A DNA stretch of 47,040 bases, filler included, from an uncultured Methanosarcinales archaeon (lineage in GTDB: Archaea; Nanobdellota; Nanobdellia; Woesearchaeales; UBA12501): assembly GCA_964397315.1 (NCBI GenBank). It is 10 parts of 10 records of this genome, joined end to end, with 100 filler letters (N's around TTAATTAATTAA, not from the genome) between each part and the next. Parts side by side here need not be neighbours in the genome. Positions count along the whole stretch, not along the records: positions 19,621 to 24,336 come from CAYNHV010000053.1; positions 24,437 to 29,122 come from CAYNHV010000054.1; 8 more parts are not named here. One strand, 5' to 3'. A program made the position numbers and the translations under genes. Below the pieces are notes generated by a model. It was not told where the DNA came from and searched no databases. It saw only the letters and a program-made list of their open reading frames with translations. Positions 8,542 through 24,437 of the stretch are shown one piece after another (position 1 is the first letter of the stretch; the number at the start of each line of letters is the position of its first letter).

Positions 8542-10443
8542 TTATAATTTTATCCTGTCTGGCTTCTCTCCCTGGATGTATATCCTGTGCCAGAGCTGGA
8601 AGTTCATGAGAGTCCAGAGCTGCCTTGCATAATACATCTTTGACCTTGCGAAATTGTCAAACATCTTCCTTATCTGGTGGTGGCTGAACAAGCCGTGCTT
8701 TTCTACCTCTTTCTCTGATAGTATGGATGTTATTGACTCTTTTATGTCCCCTTCAATCCACCTGTCTATGGGCACGAAAAAACCTTGTTTCTTCCTTTTT
8801 ATGACCTCGTGGGGCATGTAAGGCTTCATGGCTTTCTTGAGGATATACTTGCCGTCCCTTCCCCTGAGCTTGAGCTTCCAGGGTATCCTGAAGGACAGGT
8901 CAACAATGTTGTGGTCGCATATTGGAACACGGGACTCAACAGCAGATGCCATTGTTGTCTTGTCCACGTGATTGAATATATTGTCAACAAGAAAGTGGTT
9001 GCTCTCAAGGTACATGACCTGATCCATGTACTCATGGCCTGAGCCGAAATACCTCTTGCTGTACTCTTCAGCCAGGCTCACATCCTTTTTTCCCTTAAGG
9101 AGCATTTTCCTCTCTTTCTCGTCCATTATTGAGACTATTGCCAGGTAGAACTTTGCTTTGCTGCCGGATGAGCTTATGAAGTCAGAGAATTTCTCCACAC
9201 CCTTATCACCGAATGCAGTCAGGAACTTTGAGAACCTCTCAATAAGAAGATTAGGAGTTGCCCTGATTGCAAAAGGAAGAACACTCTTCTTAACAGCTTT
9301 AGGTATCATATTGAACTTTTTCCTGTGCTTGAGGAACTCAAAGTGCTGGTAGCCGCCGAATATCTCGTCTCCTCCCGCGCCGTTAAGCACCACGCTGACG
9401 TGCTTCTTGACAAGCCTTGAGAGCAGATAGCTGGGTATTATTGCAGGGTCTGCAATTGGCTCGTCCATGTGCCAGCATATTCTTGGAAGCTCCTTCACAG
9501 AAGGCTCGCAGTACAGCTCCTTGTGGTCTGTATTGTAAAATCCAGCCACTTTTCTCGCGTATTTTATGTCCTCTGTCCTCCTGTCAGAGCCGAAGTCTAC
9601 AGAGAAGCTCTTTATCGGATAATCCAGCTGTTTCATCATTGCTGCAATGGATGTGGAGTCAATGCCTCCTGAAAGGTAAACCCCCAGCGGGACGTCAGAT
9701 ATCATCCTTCTGTCAACAGACTCCATCATCTCCTTCTGAAGTTTCTTCACAAAGTATGATTCAGGCCTGTCCTGAGTTTCAATGCTTATGTCCCACCACT
9801 GCTTTCCTGAAAGCTTCCTTGTCCTCAGGTCAAACACAGCATAGTGGCCCTGGCTGAGCTTCATAACATCCCTGAGCATTGTGCTATTGTCAGTGTTGTA
9901 GCGGAAGGTGACAAGCTTGTTCAGGGCGTTCATGTCCACCTCTCTCCTTATGTCATGGCAAAGTATTGACTTGATCTCTGAAGCGAATATGAGACTGCCT
10001 TCCTTTTTGTGATAATAAAGCGGCTTTATTCCCAGCCTGTCCCTTGCCAGGAAGAGTATCTTCTTCTTTGAGTCATAGATGCAGAAAGCGAACATTCCGT
10101 TGAACTTTTTCAGGCAGTCAAACCCATACTCCTCATAAGCGTGGATTATGGTTTCAGTGTCTGTGTCTGAAGAGAATCTGTGGCCTTTTTCCTCAAGCTC
10201 ATCCCTCAGCTCCCTGAAGTTGTATATCTCTCCGTTGTAGGTTATCCACACAGTGCTGTCCTCATTTGACATGGGCTGCCTGCCCTTTTTGCTGAGGTCT
10301 ATTATTGAGAGCCTCCTGTGGGATAGAGAGACATTCCTGTCATTGAAAAGGCCTGAATCATCAGGGCCCCTGTGGCTCATGGCAGAGGCCATCTTAATTG
10401 CAAGGTTTCTGTCATCCCAGTTGAATCCAGCTATGCCGCACAT
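8542..10443 (-). CDS. asnB: Asparagine synthase (glutamine-hydrolysing) family amidotransferase
   Basis: N-terminal MCGIAG, HRGPD, HRRLSIIDL, YNGEIYNF, ARDRLGIKPLYY, LSGGIDS and GGDEIFGGY. Confidence 0.95.
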   Translation of the reverse strand: MCGIAGFNWDDRNLAIKMASAMSHRGPDDSGLFNDRNVSLSHRRLSIIDLSKKGRQPMSNEDSTVWITYNGEIYNFRELRDELEEKGHRFSSDTDTETIIHAYEEYGFDCLKKFNGMFAFCIYDSKKKILFLARDRLGIKPLYYHKKEGSLIFASEIKSILCHDIRREVDMNALNKLVTFRYNTDNSTMLRDVMKLSQGHYAVFDLRTRKLSGKQWWDISIETQDRPESYFVKKLQKEMMESVDRRMISDVPLGVYLSGGIDSTSIAAMMKQLDYPIKSFSVDFGSDRRTEDIKYARKVAGFYNTDHKELYCEPSVKELPRICWHMDEPIADPAIIPSYLLSRLVKKHVSVVLNGAGGDEIFGGYQHFEFLKHRKKFNMIPKAVKKSVLPFAIRATPNLLIERFSKFLTAFGDKGVEKFSDFISSSGSKAKFYLAIVSIMDEKERKMLLKGKKDVSLAEEYSKRYFGSGHEYMDQVMYLESNHFLVDNIFNHVDKTTMASAVESRVPICDHNIVDLSFRIPWKLKLRGRDGKYILKKAMKPYMPHEVIKRKKQGFFVPIDRWIEGDIKESITSILSEKEVEKHGLFSHHQIRKMFDNFARSKMYYARQLWTLMNFQLWHRIYIQGEKPDRIKL

Positions 10444-10495
10444 TGCACATAAGTCTGTGCCCCTTAATTTAAAAAGGTTTCTGGGAAGAAGAGAG

Positions 10496-11266
10496 CTAAT
10501 GCCATGCTTTTGCTTTTCTATACTCCCAGATAATGCTTTTTATCTTCCTTTTACCAAGGTTCCTGCAGAGATAATCCATATCCTTTAGTCTGAATGAATC
10601 ATTTCTCATCCCATGTTTCCAGCATATTGCTTCGTGCATCTCTTTTATCATGTGCATCAACTCATAGAACTCCTGCCAGCTTTTTATTTCGTGAAACCTT
10701 GACAGGTGTAAAATACTTAGTTTTCTTGAAATAGGAATATTTATGCCCTTGTTCTCAAGCTGCCTGTAATAGACTAGCTGGGCAGGTGTGTTTTCCAGTT
10801 CAGTCAGCTTCTTGAGGTCATCATCCACATGAGCCCTTATCCTGAGCTTTTGCACAAATACATCCTTTGGCTCGTCTCTAGTGTTATGGATATACTTGAT
10901 TATGCTGCTGAAGTTATGTTTTACAAACATTTTCGCATAGGGATAATCATGCTTATTTCTGGAAGTGATTATGGCAAACCGGAATCCCTCAGAATATAAT
11001 CTCCTTAGGATATTGACGCATTCCTCAGGTATTTCGTACTCAAGTATGTGTTCCTCATTAAGCTTGTCCATCAGATCCCTGTAGTTCACATTTTTTCCTA
11101 GCTGTTTCATAAGATTATTAAATCCAGATTTTTTAGTCTGAGAGTACTTAAGATTTACACCAAACCATTTCTTTGCGTATCTTATTTTTGCATTTATACC
11201 ATGAGCCAGAACTCCATCAAAATCAAGGCCAATGTTTATGTTTTTCGCAATATGCTCATTTCTCAC
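10496..11266 (-). CDS. HAD-superfamily 5'(3')-nucleotidase-like phosphatase
   Basis: Motif I IGLDFDGVL, motif II IITSR, motif III K (EPKD), motif IV HVDD. Confidence 0.75.
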   Translation of the reverse strand: MRNEHIAKNINIGLDFDGVLAHGINAKIRYAKKWFGVNLKYSQTKKSGFNNLMKQLGKNVNYRDLMDKLNEEHILEYEIPEECVNILRRLYSEGFRFAIITSRNKHDYPYAKMFVKHNFSSIIKYIHNTRDEPKDVFVQKLRIRAHVDDDLKKLTELENTPAQLVYYRQLENKGINIPISRKLSILHLSRFHEIKSWQEFYELMHMIKEMHEAICWKHGMRNDSFRLKDMDYLCRNLGKRKIKSIIWEYRKAKAWH

Positions 11267-11418
11267 TCTTCACAGCCTCACAGCTAATATTTATCATGCT
11301 CTCTTTATTGTTGCAATTATAAAGCTTGACAGCATTGTATCATCCAGTCTGCTTCAGTATAGCAGGGGATGCCAATCATTGAATCATCTTTTTCTTCAAC
11401 CATTTTTATCGCCTTTTT

Positions 11419-12342
11419 TTAGTTTAAATCATATGTCCAACAGGTTTTCATAAAATTTTCAAACCTTTCTGGCTCTAATTCTTTTGCCTTATTAAGATAT
11501 CCTTGATAATTATGTTTTCCCATAAAATATGCAAGCTGTGCAGCCGAGACAAGATTATCAAACCTTTCTTCTTTTTCAAGGGATTTTTTGAACAATTGCA
11601 TCGCTTTTCTTTCATTTTTGTTGAATAATCTCAATCCTTTGAGATAATAAGCTTCCCAATGTTCTGGCCACTTTTCTATTATCTTATCAATCAACTCAAG
11701 TGATGCCTTATTTTTTCCGATCTGGCCTAAAGCTCCTGCTTTTATCAGCATCGCATCTCTATTGTTCTCATCTATTTCAAGAATCTCATTACATATCTTG
11801 ATTGCTTTTTTGTCATTACAGCTTGCATTTCTATGAAATCTTGCCTCTTCCAGTAAAGCAGATATTTTTATTTCATTTTTAGAATATTCGGATTCTGCGC
11901 AGGAAATGCTTTTATTGTCATTCCTATTATTTTTTAGATGCTGCTTAAACATTTCATAGTGCTGCTTAATCCTTTTCATATAAATATCATCTTCAAGAAG
12001 TATTTCACTGAAAAGCTTTAATGCTTCTTTAGAATATTTAGTGTTTGTACCTTCTGTTTGAAGAACAGGCCCTTTAAGGTCTTTGGCATGTTCTTTATCC
12101 ATCCATCTCCGATAGTATTCTAATGATTCCCACCCAAAACCAATAGTTGCGACTATATCATTATTGTGGACAACATTTAGAAATACCCTTCTGCAATCAC
12201 AATCTGGATCATTGCAGTAGCTCTCGACAAAAAAATAGTCGCCTGCTGGAAGCTTGTATTTTGAACCTTCTGGCAGGAATATACATCTTGTCTCTTTTTT
12301 AGCAGTATCTTCAAATCTTAGATTAAACGGCTCCATCATCAT
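11419..12342 (-). CDS. Hypothetical protein with an N-terminal YCNDPDCDCRRV Cys-cluster domain and C-terminal TPR repeats
   Basis: Cys motif plus helical TPR-like repeats (AIKICNEILEIDENNRDAMLIKA; PEHWEAYYLKG). AT-rich region. Confidence 0.7.
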   Translation of the reverse strand: MMMEPFNLRFEDTAKKETRCIFLPEGSKYKLPAGDYFFVESYCNDPDCDCRRVFLNVVHNNDIVATIGFGWESLEYYRRWMDKEHAKDLKGPVLQTEGTNTKYSKEALKLFSEILLEDDIYMKRIKQHYEMFKQHLKNNRNDNKSISCAESEYSKNEIKISALLEEARFHRNASCNDKKAIKICNEILEIDENNRDAMLIKAGALGQIGKNKASLELIDKIIEKWPEHWEAYYLKGLRLFNKNERKAMQLFKKSLEKEERFDNLVSAAQLAYFMGKHNYQGYLNKAKELEPERFENFMKTCWTYDLN

Positions 12343-13850
12343 TTTTTATCACCTATATTTTTCATAGCCGTTTCCAACATATTTTTCATCTTCATCCTGA
12401 TCTCATCAGGCATATCAGCAAAATTATCCAATTCTTTAATTCCTGTCTCAATATAGTGCTTAGCCATTATTGGATTTTTGCTAAAATAAACCTGAGCCAT
12501 GAATACATAAATAGGAATAAAATCAGGATATTCCTGTGTAAACTCATTATAGAATTTATCAATTGTGCTATAATCGCCTTTCTCTTTAAGCCATATTAGA
12601 AAATCGTTTATTAGATTAGTAAAATAAGTTCCTTTTTCCATTAAAAAGATAAACTTTTGCTTATCATCCATAGAAAAAAATTCACTTTCTTCTCTACCTA
12701 ATGCTTTCTGTTCTTCGCTAATATCAATATCTTCATTTCTTAAAAGGATTGTATCTATAGCCTCTTTAAGCATACCGATCTTTTTTCCAAAAGCCTCTAT
12801 GTTTTTTTCATATTCTTTTGCTTCTTCTTCATCATACAGCTCATGGGAAAAAGCTATCCATTTGACATAAGCCTGCTCATCCTGCATCCATGTCCTGTTA
12901 TCAATCGCCCATAGAAGATAGTCTAAGATAATCTTTAGTTCATGGTGTGTTATAGGGTGTTCTTGAAGCACCTCACTTAATATTTCCATAATCTCAATCT
13001 CAAGCTCGTGCTTAAAAAAATTCAAGTCATTTAGGTAGTTTTCTTTTATTTTTTTCAGTATGTTTTTAATATCTTCATCTTTTAGATCATCATCTTCATA
13101 ATAAAAATATTCAGCTGTTGCATGCTCTATTTCACCAAGAAAGTCGCTGTATTCTTGTTCTTTTCCATAAAGGCTTTTTATATGCTTTACAGCTTCTGTG
13201 TCTTTTTTTAGAAGTTTTTGCAATGGCTTAAATTCAGAATCGCTGATATCAAAAATTGAGGATGGTGTTTCAACCAGAGCATACATTTTATAAATATTAA
13301 AATATTTTGAATGAGATATTAATTCATAAAAAGCCATGCAGTGAAATCTCTTAAATGCAGACATTATGCTTGACTTGATCTTTTCATCCTTTTCTTTTTC
13401 ATATAATTTAGTTAACTCAACATAAGAATCAACATTCAGCTTGTTTAGCTCATCGATCTCTTCTTTTGTATAAATCTGCTTTTTAGCTGCTCCTAGAATC
13501 CTTATTATACTAGTAAGGAAAATGGACCTGTAGCTTTCCATGACAGAATTTATGGTTCTTCTGACTGTGCCGTCTGTACTGGTGATGTTATTAAGCAATA
13601 TCTCTTTGTATCTTTTTAGATAATCTATAGGTATTCCAATATAAAGGGTAGCATTAAGCCCCCTTATTGTTATTTTTATATTTTCATCGTCTTTGCTTTC
13701 ATGATTGTCAAGTATTTCCTTAAAAAGCTCTTTTTTCTCATCTTCATTATCTCTGCTTTCCCACGAATTCTTCTTGATCTCTTTTACAGCTTCGTTTACC
13801 TTTTCCATTTCTCCAGAATACAAATCCTGTATCAGTTTTTGTTTGTTCAT
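12339..13850 (-). CDS. Acidic all-helical (HEAT/TPR-like) hypothetical protein
   Basis: 503-aa AT-rich ORF overlapping the next gene by ATGA, which suggests translational coupling. Confidence 0.7.
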   Translation of the reverse strand: MNKQKLIQDLYSGEMEKVNEAVKEIKKNSWESRDNEDEKKELFKEILDNHESKDDENIKITIRGLNATLYIGIPIDYLKRYKEILLNNITSTDGTVRRTINSVMESYRSIFLTSIIRILGAAKKQIYTKEEIDELNKLNVDSYVELTKLYEKEKDEKIKSSIMSAFKRFHCMAFYELISHSKYFNIYKMYALVETPSSIFDISDSEFKPLQKLLKKDTEAVKHIKSLYGKEQEYSDFLGEIEHATAEYFYYEDDDLKDEDIKNILKKIKENYLNDLNFFKHELEIEIMEILSEVLQEHPITHHELKIILDYLLWAIDNRTWMQDEQAYVKWIAFSHELYDEEEAKEYEKNIEAFGKKIGMLKEAIDTILLRNEDIDISEEQKALGREESEFFSMDDKQKFIFLMEKGTYFTNLINDFLIWLKEKGDYSTIDKFYNEFTQEYPDFIPIYVFMAQVYFSKNPIMAKHYIETGIKELDNFADMPDEIRMKMKNMLETAMKNIGDKK

Positions 13851-13856
13851 TGTACA

Positions 13857-14010
13857 TCACCAGTTGCAAAACCATACATTATAGTCATATATTAGCTGGA
13901 AATTATCATCTTCATTCTCAGGCTCAAAATCAACAAGAGGAACAACAACCTTCTTTCTTCTGACCTCCCTTCAACTAATATCCCTTAATGATCATCATAC
14001 TGGTCTGATA
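13857..14010 (-). pseudogene. Remnant of a CcbP-like (calcium-binding domain) gene
   Basis: Minus strand reads DQYDDH*GILVEGRS, a frameshift, then RKKVVVPLVDFEPENEDDNFQLIYDYNVWFCNW*, resembling the YGILV..RKK..PL.D.E...N.QLI.DY.VWF.N C-terminus. Contains one premature TAA and one frameshift. Confidence 0.5.
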
Positions 14011-14255
14011 GTCTATGGGCATTGACAATTATGCTTCTTCTGCAATTTTGATGAAGATTTAAAAACCTCAAATTGCCCCTAAGGGCANNNNNNNNNNNNN
14101 NNNNNNNNNNNNNNNNNNNNNNNNNNNNNNNTTAATTAATTAANNNNNNNNNNNNNNNNNNNNNNNNNNNNNNNNNNNNNNNNNNNNCTCTAAAGAAATG
14201 GGAAACTTATGGTTTTTTATATAGGGGGTTTCTGGGGAGCCACATGACCAAAAGA

Positions 14256-19620: not shown

Positions 19621-19674
19621 AAGAAGGAAAAAGCATATATTATTAAGAGTGTGAACTAAATATCAACTTGAACA
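19621..19674. repeat. End of a collapsed multi-copy element (family D)
   Basis: AAGAAGGAAAAAGCATATATTATTAAGAGTGTGAACTAAATATCAACTTGAACA is identical at 24438-24491, with a diverged inverted copy at 29068-29122. Confidence 0.85.
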
Positions 19675-19728
19675 GTAAAAATATTAGGGTAAATGTGCCT
19701 GAAGCGCCAGTCCAGAATCAGGAGCATG

Positions 19729-20130
19729 TCATCCCCTTATCCTGCTTGCAGTGATATACCTCACGTTTTTTGTTATGGCTCCTGCAGTAACCTTGCCTAT
19801 GATCTTCCCGTCCTTTTCTACAAGAATCCTTCTTATCTCATTCTCTCCCATTCTTCTCGCAGCTTCCTCAAGGCTCTCGTCAGGGCCTACTGTAATCAGG
19901 GGCCTGCTTGCTATGTCAATTGCGCTTATGCGGGAGGGGCTTTTGTTCTTTGAAGTGACCTTCCTCAGTATGTCCCTCTCAGTCACTATGCCCTCAGGCC
20001 CTCCCTTACTCTCAAGAAGAACAGAGCCGGTCTTCCTCTTGTCCATCAGGACAGCCACTTCAGCAGCGCTAACATTTGAGGGAAGCCTGGCTATCTCGTG
20101 CATTATATCTTTTATCTTCATGAAAACCAC
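19729..20130 (-). CDS. CBS-domain pair protein
   Basis: KIKDIM, GIVTERDILRKV, LITVGPDESLEEAARRM..NEIRRILV..GKIIG. Confidence 0.9.
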   Translation of the reverse strand: MVFMKIKDIMHEIARLPSNVSAAEVAVLMDKRKTGSVLLESKGGPEGIVTERDILRKVTSKNKSPSRISAIDIASRPLITVGPDESLEEAARRMGENEIRRILVEKDGKIIGKVTAGAITKNVRYITASRIRG

Positions 20131-20190
20131 CCCAACATTATAGGGTGTTCCGGCTTTAAATATTTTATTATTTGCAAAGAAAAGAGAGGC

Positions 20191-21072
20191 TTACCTGAAC
20201 AGTATGCTGGCATAACCCACTGCATGGGAATAATCCCCCACAATGTCTGCTGAAGTGTAGTATTTCAGCAGCTCTGCCTTTGCGCCTGCATCCCTCATAA
20301 GCTCAATCATCGCGTAAATGGCATGCTTTCCGCAGATTGTGGCCCCTGTCCTGCTGCAGTAGTCCATGAAACCCTCTGAGTCAAGCTTAAGGATATGGCC
20401 TATAGCCCCCCTGTCCAGCTTGTGCATGTTCTCCTTAATGCTGTCCCTGAAAGGCGTGAATCCAAAGCTCGCTCCAAGGTGAGTGAAGTCAGAGCTTGCT
20501 ATGATAACAATATTCTTTCCCTGGCTGGCATACTTTTTTACTGCCTTGATAAGATTCTCTGCTGCGCTCTTGTATTCTGTCTCAGCCACCATTACAGGAA
20601 TGAGTCTCAGCTTGTCCTCCATGCCTGAAGATGCATGCTGGAGAAAGGGAATCTGAACCTCAATGCTGTGCTCCTCCTTGTGGGGAAAGGGCACAAGGTC
20701 TATGCTGTTCTCCTCAAGGATCCTTCCGAAATCACTGTCTGTCACTGCAACACCAAGGGGAGTCTCCCAGTCATCCTCTGAAAAGCAGGACTTGTGAAAG
20801 CCAATATGGCTGGGCCCTAATATAAGGTAGAGGTCAGCGAATTCAGACTCTGCAAGAGCCTTGAAACTGTGGGCGGCGCAGGGGCCTGAGAAGGGATAGC
20901 CAGCATGGGGCACGATAACGCCTTTTATCCAGCCCTGCCTCTGGCCTGACGGCTCCCTGCCAGGGCCTCTCTCATGAAGGAATGACTGCCTTATCTGCTC
21001 CCTGAGCTCCTCTTCCTCTCCTGCATAGAACCGGCCTGCAGCTATAGGCTTTCTTATCATAAGAGGTGGCAA
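20191..21072 (-). CDS. AmmeMemoRadiSam system protein B (MEMO1 family)
   Basis: RKPIAAGRFY, IVPHAGYPFSG, ILGPSH, EHSIEVQIPFLQ, IASSDFTH, TICG and VGYAS. Confidence 0.92.
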   Translation of the reverse strand: MPPLMIRKPIAAGRFYAGEEEELREQIRQSFLHERGPGREPSGQRQGWIKGVIVPHAGYPFSGPCAAHSFKALAESEFADLYLILGPSHIGFHKSCFSEDDWETPLGVAVTDSDFGRILEENSIDLVPFPHKEEHSIEVQIPFLQHASSGMEDKLRLIPVMVAETEYKSAAENLIKAVKKYASQGKNIVIIASSDFTHLGASFGFTPFRDSIKENMHKLDRGAIGHILKLDSEGFMDYCSRTGATICGKHAIYAMIELMRDAGAKAELLKYYTSADIVGDYSHAVGYASILFR

Positions 21073-21100
21073 ACAAGCGTGATTTTTAAATATTACTCAT

Positions 21101-21904
21101 TCAAGAATCAAGAGGGCTTTTTATCCTCAAAATATCCTTATCAGAGACTCTTGTGTACACCATCGTGGTGTGAATATCAGAATGGCCCAACAGACCCTGT
21201 ATGTGCCTTATATCAATCCCCCTCTCCAGAAGATGCGCGGCAAAGGAGTGCCTCAATGTGTGAGGGGTCACCCTCTTTTTTATGCCTGCTTTTTCCGCAG
21301 CCTGCCTGACAATCCCCTGGATGCTCCTGGCAGTGTATCTGCTGCCTCTTGATGTCCTGAACACATGCCCTCTCTTTTCAGCATCAAGGCTCCTCAGGCC
21401 CTTCTTGACTTTAGGGGAGAGCATCACAACCCTGTCCTTCTTGCCCTTTGCCCTCTTGAGGTGGATCACGTTCCTGCTGAAATCCACATCCTCCCACTTC
21501 AGGCTGATGATCTCGCCCAGCCTCAGGCCTGCTGAATAAGCTGTCTGGATTATGAGCCTGTGGTTGAGATTCCTTGTTGACATTATCATGGCTTCAATCT
21601 CCCTTTTTGAGAGCACAACAGGAAGCCTCTTCTCTCTTTTCACATTCGGCAAGTCATTAAGAGCACGCTCCTCTCCCTTCAGCCTCAGAAAGAACTTTAC
21701 TGCGAAACCAGCAACCCTGACAGAATCATCCTTATGCCCCATCTCAATCAGGCCTGAAAGGTAATCTCTTGGCCCAAGGCCGGAATCAAGAAATTTTCTG
21801 ATGTGGAAGAGGTAAGCCTGGATTGTCTTATGAGAGTAACCCCTTAGCTTGGCCTCGTCTTCCACTAATTTTTTCCAATCTCCGCTTTTCAGGCTTCTTT
21901 CCAT
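21101..21904 (-). CDS. Tyrosine recombinase of the Xer/integron-integrase-like clade, lacking the IntI-specific insertion
   Basis: N-terminal LRGYSHKTIQAY, LPVVLS, YSAGLRLGE (R), KGKKDR (K), HTLRHSFA (HxxR), LLGH, TTMVYT (Y) and C-terminal IKSPLD. ATG at 21904 lies about 25 nt after a minus-strand TTATAAAA box. Confidence 0.93.
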   Translation of the reverse strand: MERSLKSGDWKKLVEDEAKLRGYSHKTIQAYLFHIRKFLDSGLGPRDYLSGLIEMGHKDDSVRVAGFAVKFFLRLKGEERALNDLPNVKREKRLPVVLSKREIEAMIMSTRNLNHRLIIQTAYSAGLRLGEIISLKWEDVDFSRNVIHLKRAKGKKDRVVMLSPKVKKGLRSLDAEKRGHVFRTSRGSRYTARSIQGIVRQAAEKAGIKKRVTPHTLRHSFAAHLLERGIDIRHIQGLLGHSDIHTTMVYTRVSDKDILRIKSPLDS

Positions 21905-21952
21905 GAAAGAACAGCGAAACAACCTGCTTTTATAAGCCTTTACCCCTCTTTT

Positions 21953-22005
21953 CCGGAACATCTCCGTATTAAACGCAACCCAACTGCGCTTAATAGGTGT
22001 TAGTT
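21953..22005. mobile_element. attC-like recombination hairpin next to the integrase
   Basis: GG-AAC-ATCTCCG-TATTAAACGCA-acccaac-TGCGCTTAATA-GGT-GTT-AGTT, with AAC and GTT core triplets around an 11-bp stem. The base composition shifts to AT-rich exactly here. Confidence 0.6.
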
Positions 22006-22249
22006 ACAATTTTTGAGAATGCCTACGAGTTAGAGTAAAGACAAAGAAATAGGAAATAATATTTTTTCTCCCACCCAATAGGAGAGACGCGCACAGTTTT
22101 CTTTTCAAGAAAACTAGATAGCAAAAACTTCGTTTTTGGATTTATAGGGGATTTTCTTAGTCGCTTATGCGACAGATAGTCTCGGCCTCGCCTCGAAGAA
22201 AAGTTTACTGATCATTCCTTTATTTACTACTTATTAGTTACTAATTAAT

Positions 22250-22264
22250 CGAAACATTTATATA
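22250..22264 (+). promoter_or_regulatory. Archaeal BRE-TATA promoter inside the cassette
   Basis: CGAAACATTTATATA about 33 nt upstream of the ATG at 22297. Confidence 0.6.
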
Positions 22265-22296
22265 GTATTAAAAATCCCTTTAAATTGAAGGCAAAA

Positions 22297-23151
22297 ATGG
22301 TTAAAGAAATAAACTACAAAAATATAGAATCAGAAATTGTTGACTGGGGGATGCATCATTGTAGACATATTTATGAAGATTCAAAAGGAAAAAGGACATT
22401 GGAACCTTCTGAAGCGGCAAGATTTGAATGGGAAGTTCTTAAACATTTTGCAGGCAAAAAAGATTATTCTGGAGAAATTGATTTTTCTAATTTTTCTAAT
22501 TATATTAGTTCAATAAACAAACGTGAAGTAGATCATATTGTATATGGGGCTTATGAAAACCTTGGAAAATATCTTAGAGATGGGGGTCATGTTCATGAAT
22601 TTATTACTGGACTTTCCCCCACTATCTTGACCTTATGTTTATTGGGAGGCTTAGAAAATGCAAAAGGAAAAAGTATTCTTGACTTAGGGTGTGGTTCAAT
22701 CACAAGCGATGCAGATGATGGAATAACGCTAAGAGATGAAATATGGTTTCAACCTTGGCTTTGCAGAACATTGCCTATTGTTGGAGTAAATTGTTATGGG
22801 GTAGATGCAGGAAATTTAGAAGGAGAGACCTTCCCGCATTACAATCTTGATTTAACAAAAAGTAACTCACTTGATGTTATTCATAGTAATAGTATGGATG
22901 CTATAGTTATGCATCATCTATTCCCTTCAATTAGACTTTCAGAAATTCTTTATGGAGATTCACTTGAAGTTCCTTCAAATTCGGATGGCTATACAGAAGC
23001 AATTAGTAAATATATAGAAAGAACAGGTAAAAACAACATTAGTAGTGGTGATGGATTGAGAGAATTTGCAAATAGAGATAAACTTTATCCGATACTCAAA
23101 CCTCAATTAGAAAGAATATTAAAACCTGAAGGAGAAATATTTATCCGATAA
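22297..23151 (+). CDS. Class I SAM-dependent methyltransferase-like protein
   Basis: KGKSILDLGCG (motif I), CYGVDAG, NSMDAIV and C-terminal RILKPEGEIF. Confidence 0.75.
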   Translation: MVKEINYKNIESEIVDWGMHHCRHIYEDSKGKRTLEPSEAARFEWEVLKHFAGKKDYSGEIDFSNFSNYISSINKREVDHIVYGAYENLGKYLRDGGHVHEFITGLSPTILTLCLLGGLENAKGKSILDLGCGSITSDADDGITLRDEIWFQPWLCRTLPIVGVNCYGVDAGNLEGETFPHYNLDLTKSNSLDVIHSNSMDAIVMHHLFPSIRLSEILYGDSLEVPSNSDGYTEAISKYIERTGKNNISSGDGLREFANRDKLYPILKPQLERILKPEGEIFIR

Positions 23152-23152
23152 A

Positions 23153-23659
23153 ATGAATCCCAATAAAATTTTAATTATTGAAGATCAAACTCCTACCTTA
23201 GATAGTATTAGCTATTCAGTCAAAAAAGTGGTTATATGTGAAGAAGAGGCTCTTCCAAGATTTGGTGATTACACATCAGAAGAAGTTGAACAAGAACTAA
23301 GAGAAAGAGGAGTCGATTTTGCTAGATGTTATAATGAAGCTCAGAAACATATCTTGAATCAAACAAAAAACTATGGTTTGGTATTCTTAGATCATCGGAT
23401 GCCTTATGAAAACTGCGTCGAATTAGAAAGAACGGATTCTAGATCATTTAGTGATAGAATGCGAGAGATAGGTTATGGATTAATTCCCATAATAAGGCAA
23501 AGCCATCCTAATGTAAAAATAATTGGAACGTCTTCCTTGAGTGAGAGCAAATTAAGATATTTTGAAAAACCTGATTTTTATTTGGATAAAAGTTCAGTCA
23601 GAACAATTGATAAAGATTTGTCAGCAATTCTAAAAGAAATTGGAGAATTTAGTGATTAA
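23153..23659 (+). CDS. Stand-alone response-regulator receiver (REC) domain protein
   Basis: KILIIED, LVFLDHRMP (phospho-Asp), IIGTSS and FYLDK, so the canonical receiver residues are all present. Confidence 0.75.
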   Translation: MNPNKILIIEDQTPTLDSISYSVKKVVICEEEALPRFGDYTSEEVEQELRERGVDFARCYNEAQKHILNQTKNYGLVFLDHRMPYENCVELERTDSRSFSDRMREIGYGLIPIIRQSHPNVKIIGTSSLSESKLRYFEKPDFYLDKSSVRTIDKDLSAILKEIGEFSD

Positions 23660-23660
23660 A

Positions 23661-24152
23661 ATGGATGCTAATAAAATAGCCAAGATAGTAGAACATGGTT
23701 ATTTATTTAGAGGCACTTCTGATAAGCTATTTGAAAGATTTAGAAATTTTCAGGAATCTTACCTAGGATATCAGTCAGGAAGTGGAAATGAGATTAGAAC
23801 ATCTACAAGTTTAAGAGTAATCCATGCAATGTCAAGCGCAGTAAGAAGAAATAAGAGTTATAAACAGGATTATTCATTAAGAGGCTGTAAACCTTTACTT
23901 TTAGCAATTGATGCAAAACCCTATATTGATTTTATTCAACCTGGAGACGAATTTTATGGTTTAGATCACATTCATCTAGCAGAACTGGAAATAACTAAAC
24001 CAATAAATTTTGAGGATATAACTATTGTTAATTCTGTTGATACTCTTGAAAGAGTTTGCAGAAATGAATTTCAAATTCTAGAAAGTATGTCTTTTGAAAC
24101 TGATGAAGTGAAGAGAGTCGTTGATTATTTTAATCAATATTTTAAAAGATGA
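23661..24152 (+). CDS. Putative ADP-ribosyltransferase-fold protein
   Basis: YLFRGT, RTSTSLR..A...A, LLLAID and ELEI...I.FEDI follow the R-S-E ART strand order. Assigned by pattern only. Confidence 0.5.
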   Translation: MDANKIAKIVEHGYLFRGTSDKLFERFRNFQESYLGYQSGSGNEIRTSTSLRVIHAMSSAVRRNKSYKQDYSLRGCKPLLLAIDAKPYIDFIQPGDEFYGLDHIHLAELEITKPINFEDITIVNSVDTLERVCRNEFQILESMSFETDEVKRVVDYFNQYFKR

Positions 24153-24437
24153 TATTCTTTTTAGAAAAAAGAAGGCAAAAAGACGGAAATCCCCATTTTC
24201 TTTTTTTAGGAAAAAAAGAAACAAAAAAAGCGCGCGTCTCTCTAATACATAGCCCACCCAAAAAATATTATTTCAAAATCATAAAAACGGCATTCTCAAA
24301 AACTTTGATTTTTTGCCTTCGGCATCGTTGCACTAANNNNNNNNNNNNNNNNNNNNNNNNNNNNNNNNNNNNNNNNNNNNTTAATTAATTAANNNNNNNN
24401 NNNNNNNNNNNNNNNNNNNNNNNNNNNNNNNNNNNNA

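Follow-up and report, generated by a model that had tools for sequence, protein, structure and literature searches.

The window (the whole stretch of DNA analysed, 47,040 nt in ten contigs joined by N spacers) contains what is likely the proximal part of an integron-like array of cassettes on the chromosome, organized around a Xer-type recombinase without the I2 segment of the integron integrase IntI. As the enzyme is XerA-like and the adjacent site dif-like, the term Xer/dif-derived integron analogue suits the system better than divergent IntI. An earlier note on this DNA had proposed a cassette-capture platform on an integrase without the IntI insertion. In its support we now have comparative evidence (variable cargo in relatives, a complementarity rule obeyed by cassettes, and attC-like sites), which also favours the note's expectation that IntI-based detectors would miss such a system.

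A Xer-like recombinase without the I2 segment

The recombinase gene adjoins the cassette array and is transcribed away from it, a layout repeated in the genomes G011, G033, G018 and G034 and at the locus L177.

21101..21904, minus strand: Xer-like tyrosine recombinase of clade A, 267 aa from M20 (longest ORF 21101–21961)
21928..21935, strand not assigned: TATA-like box (TTTTATAA / TTATAAAA), 24 nt from the ATG at 21904

The ORF at 21101–21961 (minus strand) encodes a complete tyrosine recombinase (Pfam Phage_integrase, 1.1e-40), and the catalytic residues R, K, H-x-x-R, H and Y that the earlier note had read in it are invariant in recombinase alignments A4 and A5. Translation probably starts at M20 (ATG at 21904), giving a protein of 267 aa in agreement with the same-genus homologue. 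The TATA-like box, the words of which are retained in G001, may serve as the promoter of a leaderless integrase mRNA, and might act in the outward direction too.

The IntI segment is missing, as had been claimed. In an alignment with IntI1, 44 IntI1 residues at the IntI additional domain (I2) have no counterpart in the recombinase, and the alignment with IntI4 (2a3v) breaks into two stretches, IntI4 having 65 residues where the recombinase has 20, a surplus of 45; at the IntI insertion, the recombinase is 44–45 aa shorter than these two proteins. Its structure model has no extra helix at the I2 position (the 2a3v alignment takes 317 columns for 267 residues), and its best fold matches are XerA. 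A KSPLD motif near the C terminus is found in IntI1 as well. Both integron-integrase models score below their cut-offs (TIGR02249, 175.8 bits against 265; NF011946, 117.2 against 435), as does the archaeal XerA model of NCBIfam (NF040815, XerA_Arch, 203.5 against 220). With the last model, other scanned clade-A members score 198–224, those of G012 (223.6) and G010 (223.8) exceeding the cut-off, and clade C reaches 260.

A palindrome and a dif-like core

Between the recombinase gene and GTTAGTT, a palindrome overlaps a dif-like site that we designate attI.

21967..21995, strand not assigned: conserved palindrome, 11-nt arms and 7-nt spacer (TATTAAACGCA / TGCGCTTAATA)
21983..22010, plus strand: dif-like attI core, 11-6-11, overlapping the palindrome at 21967–21995
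21983..21993: left arm of the core
21994..21999: spacer of the core, TAGGTG
22000..22010: right arm of the core, TTAGTTACAAT

The palindrome is kept in 10 genomes, with both sides changed in 4 of 11 pairs and a covariation score that 0 of 500 shuffles match; folded in isolation it is weak (−6 kcal/mol, z −1.9, 11 of 200 shuffles equally good). The palindrome/core lies upstream of 12 of the 13 intact clade-A genes and of one pseudogene. Positions 21983–22010 fit the plan of dif, a pair of inverted 11-bp arms around a 6-bp spacer (as given in the available portions of PMC8371274 and PMC2958812), and 15 of the 22 arm positions are identical to those of Escherichia coli dif. The left arm is fixed and the right arm varies in nearly every genome, unlike a dif site conserved in both arms, and many sites of the same right-arm form lie within arrays rather than one per chromosome. 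The crossover point would fall between G21999 and T22000. Where the earlier note had seen an AAC...GTT hairpin, there is indeed an inverted-repeat site upstream of the gene, but it is no R″/R′ pair and consists of the palindrome and the dif-like core.

The first cassette and its trailer

22000..24336, plus strand: cassette 1, AT-rich, three genes, 3′ attC truncated by the contig end
22000..22148, plus strand: left-end module, inverted-repeat blocks matching the right end, plus CCCACCCAA
22297..23151, plus strand: ORF1, 284 aa, motif ILDLGCGS
23153..23659, plus strand: ORF2, 168 aa, weak receiver-domain likeness
23661..24152, plus strand: ORF3, 163 aa, no family match
24155..24302, plus strand: right-end module, imperfect inverted copy of the left-end blocks
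24303..24336, plus strand: 34-nt conserved trailer, holding the GCCTTCGGC hairpin and TTGCACTAA

The GC fraction falls from 0.46–0.52 at 20401–22000 to 0.25–0.35 at 22001–24400, and ORF1–ORF3 match no family above threshold in Pfam, NCBIfam or PHROGs, in keeping with the description of AT-rich DNA carrying three unrelated genes past the GTT; position 24336 is, as had been stated, a contig end. ORF1 is possibly a class I SAM-methyltransferase-like protein, which we offer as a lead only (Atlas 0.88, and its motif). The likeness of ORF2 to Pfam Response_reg scores 17.1 bits, below the cut-off of 30.2. PADLOC and PHROGs returned nothing usable for the cargo, and the window was scanned for tRNA genes without a match, so the block is not a tRNA-targeting island.

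The trailer is unchanged in at least 120 metagenome contigs, each time just before an attC-like hairpin. Elsewhere the order is invariably the 34-nt trailer, a short hairpin and then R″ of the attC-like site. Rfam gave no match on 12 loci holding the 34-mer or the array on contig C23 of this genome (G000). The terminal TTGCACTAA (24328–24336) had been taken for the complement of the cassette start; it is instead part of this common trailer, and in C23 the same words precede the attC-like sites of cassettes with other starts. Interpreting TTGCACTAA as an R″ box that bulges out a T was abandoned after the cassette-rule scan described below. The expected complement of the start of cassette 1, GTAACTAAC, is absent from the assembly and should lie about 26 nt beyond the contig end at 24336.

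Variable cargo and the cassette rule

Three comparative observations support a cassette array. First, the junction is variable. The loci of relatives lose similarity directly past G|TTA (G being 21999; further cases are L060, L101 and L059), and the same junction architecture was found in more than 12 other genomes. In the metagenome, variant unitigs start exactly at 22000, and in run X4 the cassette is present without the host part, 19621–22148 being uncovered, a weak hint. The earlier note had asked for variable cargo at the same GTT, and would have counted against itself a constant association of the three genes with the integrase: every relative differs past G|TTA, and none of the three cargo genes, nor the Memo/CBS flank, recurs next to any relative's integrase. 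The locus L177 combines an integrase of 44.6% identity with attI and a cassette that has the same end modules and different cargo; the 3′ half of its attC matches the opening 55 nt of C23 without a difference. We infer that the contig carrying cassette 1, C53, continues into C23.

Second, cassettes obey a complementarity rule, by which the 9-mer ending a cassette is the exact reverse complement of that cassette's own first 9 bases. On C23 a perfect 9-mer satisfies this rule in 6 of 6 consecutive cassettes (49>921, 1040>4725, 4850>5229, 5250>5393, 5500>6029 and 6049>6685). At the loci of relatives, 21 downstream matches (15 once overlapping loci are removed) compare with 3 in the upstream control, and at metagenome loci 32 compare with 8. 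Four rule-obeying cassettes lie right beside the recombinase in G011, followed by host GC. Genome-wide, the scan of G000 is unenriched (24 downstream, 26 upstream), the signal being confined to C23.

Third, imperfect inverted repeats of the form R″-L″...L′-R′ with AAC/GTT, which we call attC-like sites, occur on C23, in relatives and in the metagenome. An L″ 8-mer has its exact reverse complement 20–200 nt downstream at 46 of 89 metagenome loci (control, 1); the metagenome hairpins comprise 8 L″ types, and GAT and then G|TT come next in 37 of the 46. Site lengths extend from R″-ATC-R′ up to about 165 nt, and the shortest form (R″-ATC-R′) folds with a single duplex arm and resembles double-stranded dif-like sites. 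Cassettes hold 0 to 4 genes. Some attC-like sites are present on contig C41, where no orderly array is readable. A first hairpin scanner, which required R″/R′ complementarity, returned a few true sites amid noise, and a rewritten one is unspecific (26 matches against 11–17 in shuffles) and unfit for genome-wide attC counts. The attC-type word CGATGTTANNNNCAAT is weakly associated with clade A: of the 16 genomes that have a gene or fragment of this clade 8 contain it, as do 6 of the 25 that have none.

Proposed mechanism

The comparisons show an attI with a fixed left arm, the right arm, TTANNNNCAAT, being that of whichever cassette stands first. Each cassette brings its own right arm at its start and an attC-like site at its end, in which R″ is the reverse complement of the cassette's opening 9 bases. 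In the mechanism that we propose, insertion and excision would take place at G|TTA, catalysed at attI and attC by the clade-A recombinase. Because R″ is complementary to the cassette start, the circle formed on excision would have a site or hairpin of perfect symmetry. The spacers of the partners are unlike (TAGGTG in attI, mostly CCGATG in attC), which suggests, by analogy with integrons and with CTX phage at dif, exchange of one strand followed by replication. The attC site may be used as a folded single strand; covariation of R″/R′ and L″/L′ favours pairing. Counting against this mechanism, the I2 helix is held necessary for single-stranded attC recombination in IntI (PMC7790495, in the portion available). 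There is also a precedent: XerC integrates the folded single-stranded DNA of CTX phage at dif by one strand exchange and replication (PMC5357621, likewise in part).

Alternative explanations

The gene could instead be a housekeeping XerA beside its own dif, and the cassettes IMEX-like parasites that exploit Xer or are moved in trans, in which case there would be no dedicated capture platform. We judge this unlikely. The earlier note had regarded grouping with XerA and action on a dif site as fatal to its claim, and the recombinase is indeed XerA-like by profile and fold and its core site dif-like; site-bearing recombinases nevertheless form a clade of their own (clade A, support 99/99), separate from two other Xer-like clades of the same order. 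The tree, which has no XerA from archaea outside this phylum, leaves clades A, B and C in a polytomy with IntI.

The clade-A gene is the sole Xer-like gene in G000, G001 and G012 (100% complete), and there it may simply be the housekeeping Xer; four other genomes (G034, G021, G010 and G011) have a second, paralogous Xer-like gene of clade B or C, and the branching of clade A conflicts with taxonomy. The three other tyrosine recombinases of G000 are long, of phage type and located elsewhere. A xerA/dif module occurs in some archaea, according to the accessible text of PMC5357621, and clade-C genes adjoin a perfect palindromic dif-like site; in clade A, by contrast, the right arm is unconserved, unlike that of a chromosomal dif, and the flank of the recombinase is not syntenic even inside the genus. 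Mini-cassettes at the site of the clade-B recombinase in G013, and an attI-like site at the clade-C recombinase in G025, indicate that the property is not exclusive to clade A. The cassettes themselves argue against parasites of this kind, as the three cassette genes scanned, those of cassette 1, have no replication or phage functions and cassettes stand in tandem arrays with hairpin sites of their own.

A further reading, which we consider very improbable, takes the AT-rich block for a transposon-like element flanked by terminal inverted repeats, or for a cargo-carrying MITE, that is a chance neighbour of the recombinase. Its ends are modular inverted repeats with blocks of 14, 15 and 25 nt. 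Both modules are high-copy in the community: the left one stands at 97x against 7.5x and is also present in other cassettes, and the right one precedes the 34-mer in about 15 of 80 metagenome contigs among the matches listed (a by-eye estimate). The community also holds cargo-less joints in which the left module leads into the right. A BLAST search of G000 with the end modules gave no additional copies, so the high copy number reflects community or unassembled DNA. The block, however, has no transposase, and its start coincides exactly with the conserved G|TTA, the point of divergence in all relatives. The modules are located within the recombination arms rather than external to them, and at L177 two successive cassettes, delimited by attI and attC, contain the same modules.

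An assembly or binning chimera of an archaeal fragment with AT-rich DNA of another organism, to which the sharp GC shift at the repeat and a short contig (4.7 kb) terminating in a repeat might point, is hardly credible, because single contigs bridge the junction in run X1 (2422 nt) and run X3 (1573 nt), one contig spans integrase, attI and cassette start, host part and cassette have equal depth (about 7.5x), long contigs of G000 contain AT-rich islands, and the junction architecture recurs in the other genomes mentioned above.

Possible extent and significance

We tentatively extend the integron-like reading to a widespread I2-free integron analogue in DPANN archaea (Nanoarchaeota), Xer/dif-derived or pre-IntI, whose recombinases would be the missing partners of IntI-less attC clusters and which would draw on a global cassette pool with near-invariant end modules. 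The available part of an archaeal integron survey reports 539 attCs and only six IntIs (PMC9668308), and in the part of its Data S1 that was covered all 9 Nanoarchaeota genomes have zero IntIs. That survey, itself accessible in part, was the only literature found on Xer-linked cassette arrays or integron-like systems in archaea.

Cassette capture by IntI has been attributed to gain of the I2 helix (PMC7790495 and PMC4792948, from the portions available), and detection tools define integrons by the I2 domain. If the wider reading is true, cassettes can be captured without I2, and these loci are a living intermediate between dif recombination and integrons. A Xer-type array with a dif-like site would supply the missing recombinase for IntI-less archaeal arrays, show a second route to cassette capture or an ancestral stage of it, and open the Xer-to-integron transition to tests on natural proteins and sites. 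It would also bring to light a large pool of cassettes, undercounted by current detectors, in ultra-small archaea. The locus hints that gene-capture systems may be buildable on ordinary chromosome-resolving Xer/dif machinery.

Comparison with known systems

Integrons, including those of archaea (Ghaly et al. 2022, PMC9668308), share with the present locus a divergent recombinase gene next to its site, crossover at G|TT, and small tandem cassettes that start with GTT, end with AAC and lie between imperfect inverted repeats R″-L″...L′-R′. Also shared are the complementarity of R″ to the first bases of its own cassette (TTRRRY travels with the cassette on recombination), mostly orphan cargo, and attC families that are highly alike within a cassette pool. 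In contrast to integrons, the recombinase here lacks the I2 additional domain and falls below integron-integrase cut-offs; attI has a dif-like core of the form 11-6-11 and a conserved palindrome; cassettes start with the 11-bp arm TTANNNNCAAT; attC sites range from R″-ATC-R′ to about 165 nt, many preceded by the invariant 34-nt trailer; and many cassette genes (on C23) lie on the opposite strand.

The pdif sites of Acinetobacter plasmids are double-stranded XerC/D sites in alternating orientation, unlike the array here, and we know of no description of cassette-specific complementarity such as that seen here for pdif modules. Discrete gene modules bounded by Xer-type sites are common to both, as described in the available text on Acinetobacter plasmids (10.1101/2024.04.09.588662). 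XerS/difSL and archaeal xerA/dif modules likewise have a gene adjoining an 11-6-11 site, an arrangement that clade-C genes match exactly with their perfect palindrome, whereas clade A conserves the left arm only, the right arm and what lies beyond being variable cargo.

IMEX at dif, such as CTX phage, rely, as is proposed here, on a Xer-type recombinase without I2, a dif-like chromosomal site and a folded palindromic incoming site, with non-homologous spacers that imply one strand exchange and replication, and tandem stacking is possible there too. IMEX-type phage or replication genes were absent, by PHROGs or Pfam, from the three cassette genes of the window. What sets the present system apart from IMEX and CTX is that archaeal gene cassettes stand in long arrays, each with a hairpin site, and that a single recombinase is encoded beside the site.

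The recombinase and its surroundings

The window (47 kb) combines ten contigs from a single metagenome-assembled genome, G000 (1.47 Mb in 61 contigs, 93% complete, 0.07% contamination), with N spacers between them. Contig C53 fills window positions 19621–24336 (4716 bp) and stops there, so that 24336 is a true contig end, as the earlier note had stated. GC content falls from ~0.49 to ~0.31 at 22000, the first base of an AT-rich three-gene block.

21101–21904, minus strand: Xer-like tyrosine recombinase gene (267 aa)
21967–21995: palindrome with 11-nt arms and a 7-nt spacer, between recombinase gene and AT-rich DNA
21983–22010: dif-like 11-6-11 site, double-stranded reading, ACTGCGCTTAA TAGGTG TTAGTTACAAT
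22000–24336: AT-rich block (cassette 1)
22010–22106 and 24218–24302: inverted-repeat blocks of the cassette ends, three, colinear, of 14, 15 and 25 nt
24303–24336: 34-nt trailer

The open reading frame at 21101–21961 (minus strand) matches Pfam Phage_integrase (1.1e-40), in line with its earlier identification as a tyrosine recombinase. We take the gene as 21101–21904 because the start of a homologue from the same genus coincides with M20 and a TATA-like word, TTATAAAA, lies 24 nt upstream of the M20 ATG. The top NCBIfam model is XerA_Arch (203.5 bits, below the equivalog cut-off of 220), and the integron integrase model TIGR02249 reaches 175.8 bits in two stretches (cut-off 265). Among solved structures, Pyrococcus XerA (4a8e) aligns in one piece (8.7e-42), whereas Vibrio IntI4 (2a3v) aligns in two, with 65 IntI4 residues opposite 20 of the recombinase. 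A MAFFT alignment leaves 44 IntI1 residues without a counterpart, and XerA chains rank first, followed by IntI4, against an AlphaFold model (pLDDT 85.8) in which no extra helix is seen at the IntI insertion point. The segment that the earlier note had reported missing is therefore absent by alignment and model alike, and the protein lacks two defining marks of integron integrases, the IntI-specific domain and scores above the model cut-offs. A C-terminal (K/R)SPLD motif is common to the recombinase and IntI1 and absent from E. coli XerC/D in the MAFFT alignment.

AT-rich islands (GC < 0.37) are common in G000, within long contigs and at contig ends (window 10400–14087; for example C1:60800–74600, C5:600–11800 and C12:15700–30700); C23, C41 and C53 were inspected for cassette structure. 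Three further tyrosine recombinase genes, in long open frames of 386–467 aa, two of them adjoining AT-rich blocks, are likely from integrated elements.

C2:102706–103167, minus strand
C2:75642–76145, plus strand
C36:9753–10256, minus strand

Host-GC DNA of G000 also carries a dispersed ~37-nt element, CCAAC-AGAAAATA-CTTCG-TATTTTCT-TA-GTTCCAAAA, with an 8-bp hairpin between AAC and GTT (C3:44080, C3:96486, C10:16499, C21:3064, C24:6362, C41:4003, C42:173 and, on the minus strand, C51:5056 and C55:2908, the last two within the window).

A dif-like site at the junction

On its own, the palindrome at 21967–21995 does not stand out (−6 kcal/mol, z −1.9). Ten genomes from several families have it upstream of their homologous gene, again with 3 nt and GTTA after it; 86% of cells are paired there, against 22–43% with the partner slid. 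Of 11 pairs, 4 are altered on both sides, and none of 500 shuffles attains the palindrome's covariation score. Looser forms occur in G018, G035, G022 and loci L060, L101 and L059, that of G035 ending at a contig end directly after GTT. All site-bearing loci are alike as far as G|TTA, the inferred crossover (G21999 | T22000), with no likeness beyond. The dif-like core, here called attI, equals E. coli dif (K-12 record; GGTGCGCATAA TGTATA TTATGTTAAAT) at 15 of 22 arm positions; its left arm is the conserved one, and the right arm has the form TTANNNN(C/A)AAT, varying in sequence between genomes.

AT-rich DNA organised as a cassette within an array

The final 27 nt of C53 are found again in contig C23 of G000, which is AT-rich for its first 6.7 kb and of host GC thereafter. 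A cassette starting at G|TTANNNNNAAT is predicted to end in R'', the reverse complement of its own first 9 bases. Six consecutive C23 cassettes obey this rule perfectly (49>921, 1040>4725, 4850>5229, 5250>5393, 5500>6029 and 6049>6685), the final site adjoining host DNA. In loci of relatives the rule yields 21 pairs (15 without overlapping loci), against 3 in a mirror control. The recombinase gene of G011 is directly adjoined by four consecutive rule-obeying cassettes and then host-level GC; four further ones lie in G033 and two in G018. A crude scan across all of G000 gave no enrichment (24 pairs against 26 in the control), so that the signal is confined to the array. Individual cassettes contain 0 to 4 genes, many on the opposite strand, and are separated by attC-like sites of the integron form R''-L''...L'-R', from R''-ATC-R' to ~165 nt. 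None of the three cassette 1 proteins lies beside any relative's recombinase gene, same genus included; the Memo/CBS flank is likewise absent beside relatives' recombinase genes, again including the same genus.

The earlier note had the block end at the complement of its opening. It does reach the start of an attC-like site, but the terminal TTGCACTAA (24328–24336) is not that complement: two C23 cassettes with different starts have the same word ahead of their attC-like sites, and their true R'' (GAATATAAC and GAGCATAAC) lie ~26 nt beyond it. The complement of the window cassette's own start, GTAACTAAC, is predicted past the contig end and was not found in the G000 assembly.

At least 120 metagenome contigs, drawn from many projects, contain exact copies of the 34-nt trailer. 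In nearly all of 80 extracted loci (L139–L218) a short hairpin, R'' and L'' come after it; their upstream sequences form a few families, and an Rfam search of 12 loci matched none. The L'' 8-mer has an exact reverse complement 20–200 nt downstream in 46 of the 89 loci with enough sequence (control, 1), with eight different types of L'' word and a continuation into GAT-G|TT in 37 of the 46. These metagenome loci obey the cassette rule in 32 cases, against 8 in the control.

Metagenome locus L177 has a recombinase of 44.6% identity, then attI and a cassette that combines the window cassette's left- and right-end modules with different cargo. The 3' half of this cassette's attC equals the initial 55 nt of C23 exactly, and we therefore infer that C53 and C23 are compatible halves of one integron-like locus of at least seven cassettes, across an unassembled join.

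A probable mobile unit with common ends

We compared C53 with Logan contigs from four runs (X1–X4) of one study, X1 being the possible source. First, X1 covers the host part as deeply as the cassette genes (~7.5×). Second, one 2422-nt contig spans integrase, attI and cassette start. Third, coverage of the end modules is 5 to 20 times higher (97× at 21991–22148 and 168× at 24203–24336). Fourth, variant unitigs start exactly at 22000. Some community contigs run from the left module into the right, ~2 kb of genes being absent, and an identical foreign 26 nt precedes 24302 in three runs. X4 has the cassette and lacks the host part, a weak hint, since the data are contigs. Taken together, these community data speak against a chimera and favour a mobile unit whose ends are shared.

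The end modules contain AATATTTTTT and GAGAGACGCGC blocks, with CCCACCCAA between the inverted-repeat blocks in the same orientation at both cassette ends. The inverted modules may be promoters or terminators. Together with a GCGCGC box, CCCACCCAA is also present after the start of the second cassette of G011 (L039) and in many metagenome right-end modules; GCGCGC without CCCACCCAA follows cassette starts in G034, G029 and G021.

Phylogeny and distribution

Recombinase homologues (E ≤ 1e-20) occur in 32 of 41 related genomes. A careful maximum-likelihood tree of 34 rows, built without XerA from other phyla and with reference long branches that meet, gives three Xer-like clades in a polytomy with IntI1, E. 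coli XerC/D lying outside. Clade A (support 99/99; 13 rows) comprises all 12 genes with an attI-type site plus that of G026, the rows having been labelled by the same feature whose clustering was then read. Its branching conflicts with taxonomy: the G011, G029 and G024 genes are nearly identical though from three families.

Four genomes (G034, G021, G010 and G011) carry a clade A gene together with one of clade B or C. Clade C genes have a near-perfect to perfect palindromic 11-6-11 dif-like site upstream, within ~70 nt of their start (L044 in G034:C5 and L046 in G021:C12; for example TACGCGTATAA TGTACC TTATACGCGTA), which looks like a true xerA/dif module.

The clade C site and three further observations blur the picture. 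Clade A stands alone in G000, G001 and G012. Sites also accompany the other clades: clade B genes have a GCGCATAA-type site; upstream of the clade B gene in G013:C25 (L030), a GCATATAA-type dif-like site precedes two ORF-less mini-cassettes (~190 and 240 nt) that obey the rule and each end in R''-ATC-G|TTA, the second starting with GTTAGTTACAAT, identical to the window cassette's start; and the clade C gene of G025 comes with an attI-like site, which lies at a contig end. Finally, the R' word CGATGTTANNNNCAAT (29 matches, against 4 in the control) is present in 8 of the 16 genomes that carry a clade A gene or a fragment of one; of the 25 other genomes, 6 contain it too.

The next-best recombinase relatives (30–42% identity) are in bacterial MAGs labelled Bacteroidota, Spirochaetia and Paceibacterota (L070, L072, L075, L078 onward).

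Proposed mechanism and relation to known systems

The arrangement suggests that the Xer-type recombinase would act on dif-like cores. The attI spacer (TAGGTG and variants) and the attC spacer (mostly CCGATG) have only their final G in common, so complete two-strand exchange would leave mismatches; exchange of one strand at G|TTA with replicative resolution would fit better. Precedents for such a route are integrons and CTX phage, whose folded DNA XerC integrates at dif (PMC5357621). Because R'' co-varies with the cassette's own start and L'' with L', the sequences argue for a base-paired attC, folded or cruciform; alternatively, the shortest sites may function as palindromes in double-stranded form.

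Archaeal integrons have been published, with IntI defined via its specific domain; the survey reports 539 attCs against six IntIs, arrays being mostly CALINs, and zero IntIs in all 9 Nanoarchaeota genomes among the Data S1 entries examined (PMC9668308). Our literature search found no paper tying Xer-type recombinases to archaeal cassette arrays. Structurally, the system is integron-like in every respect tested, but with a recombinase that has no IntI domain and scores below the cut-offs.
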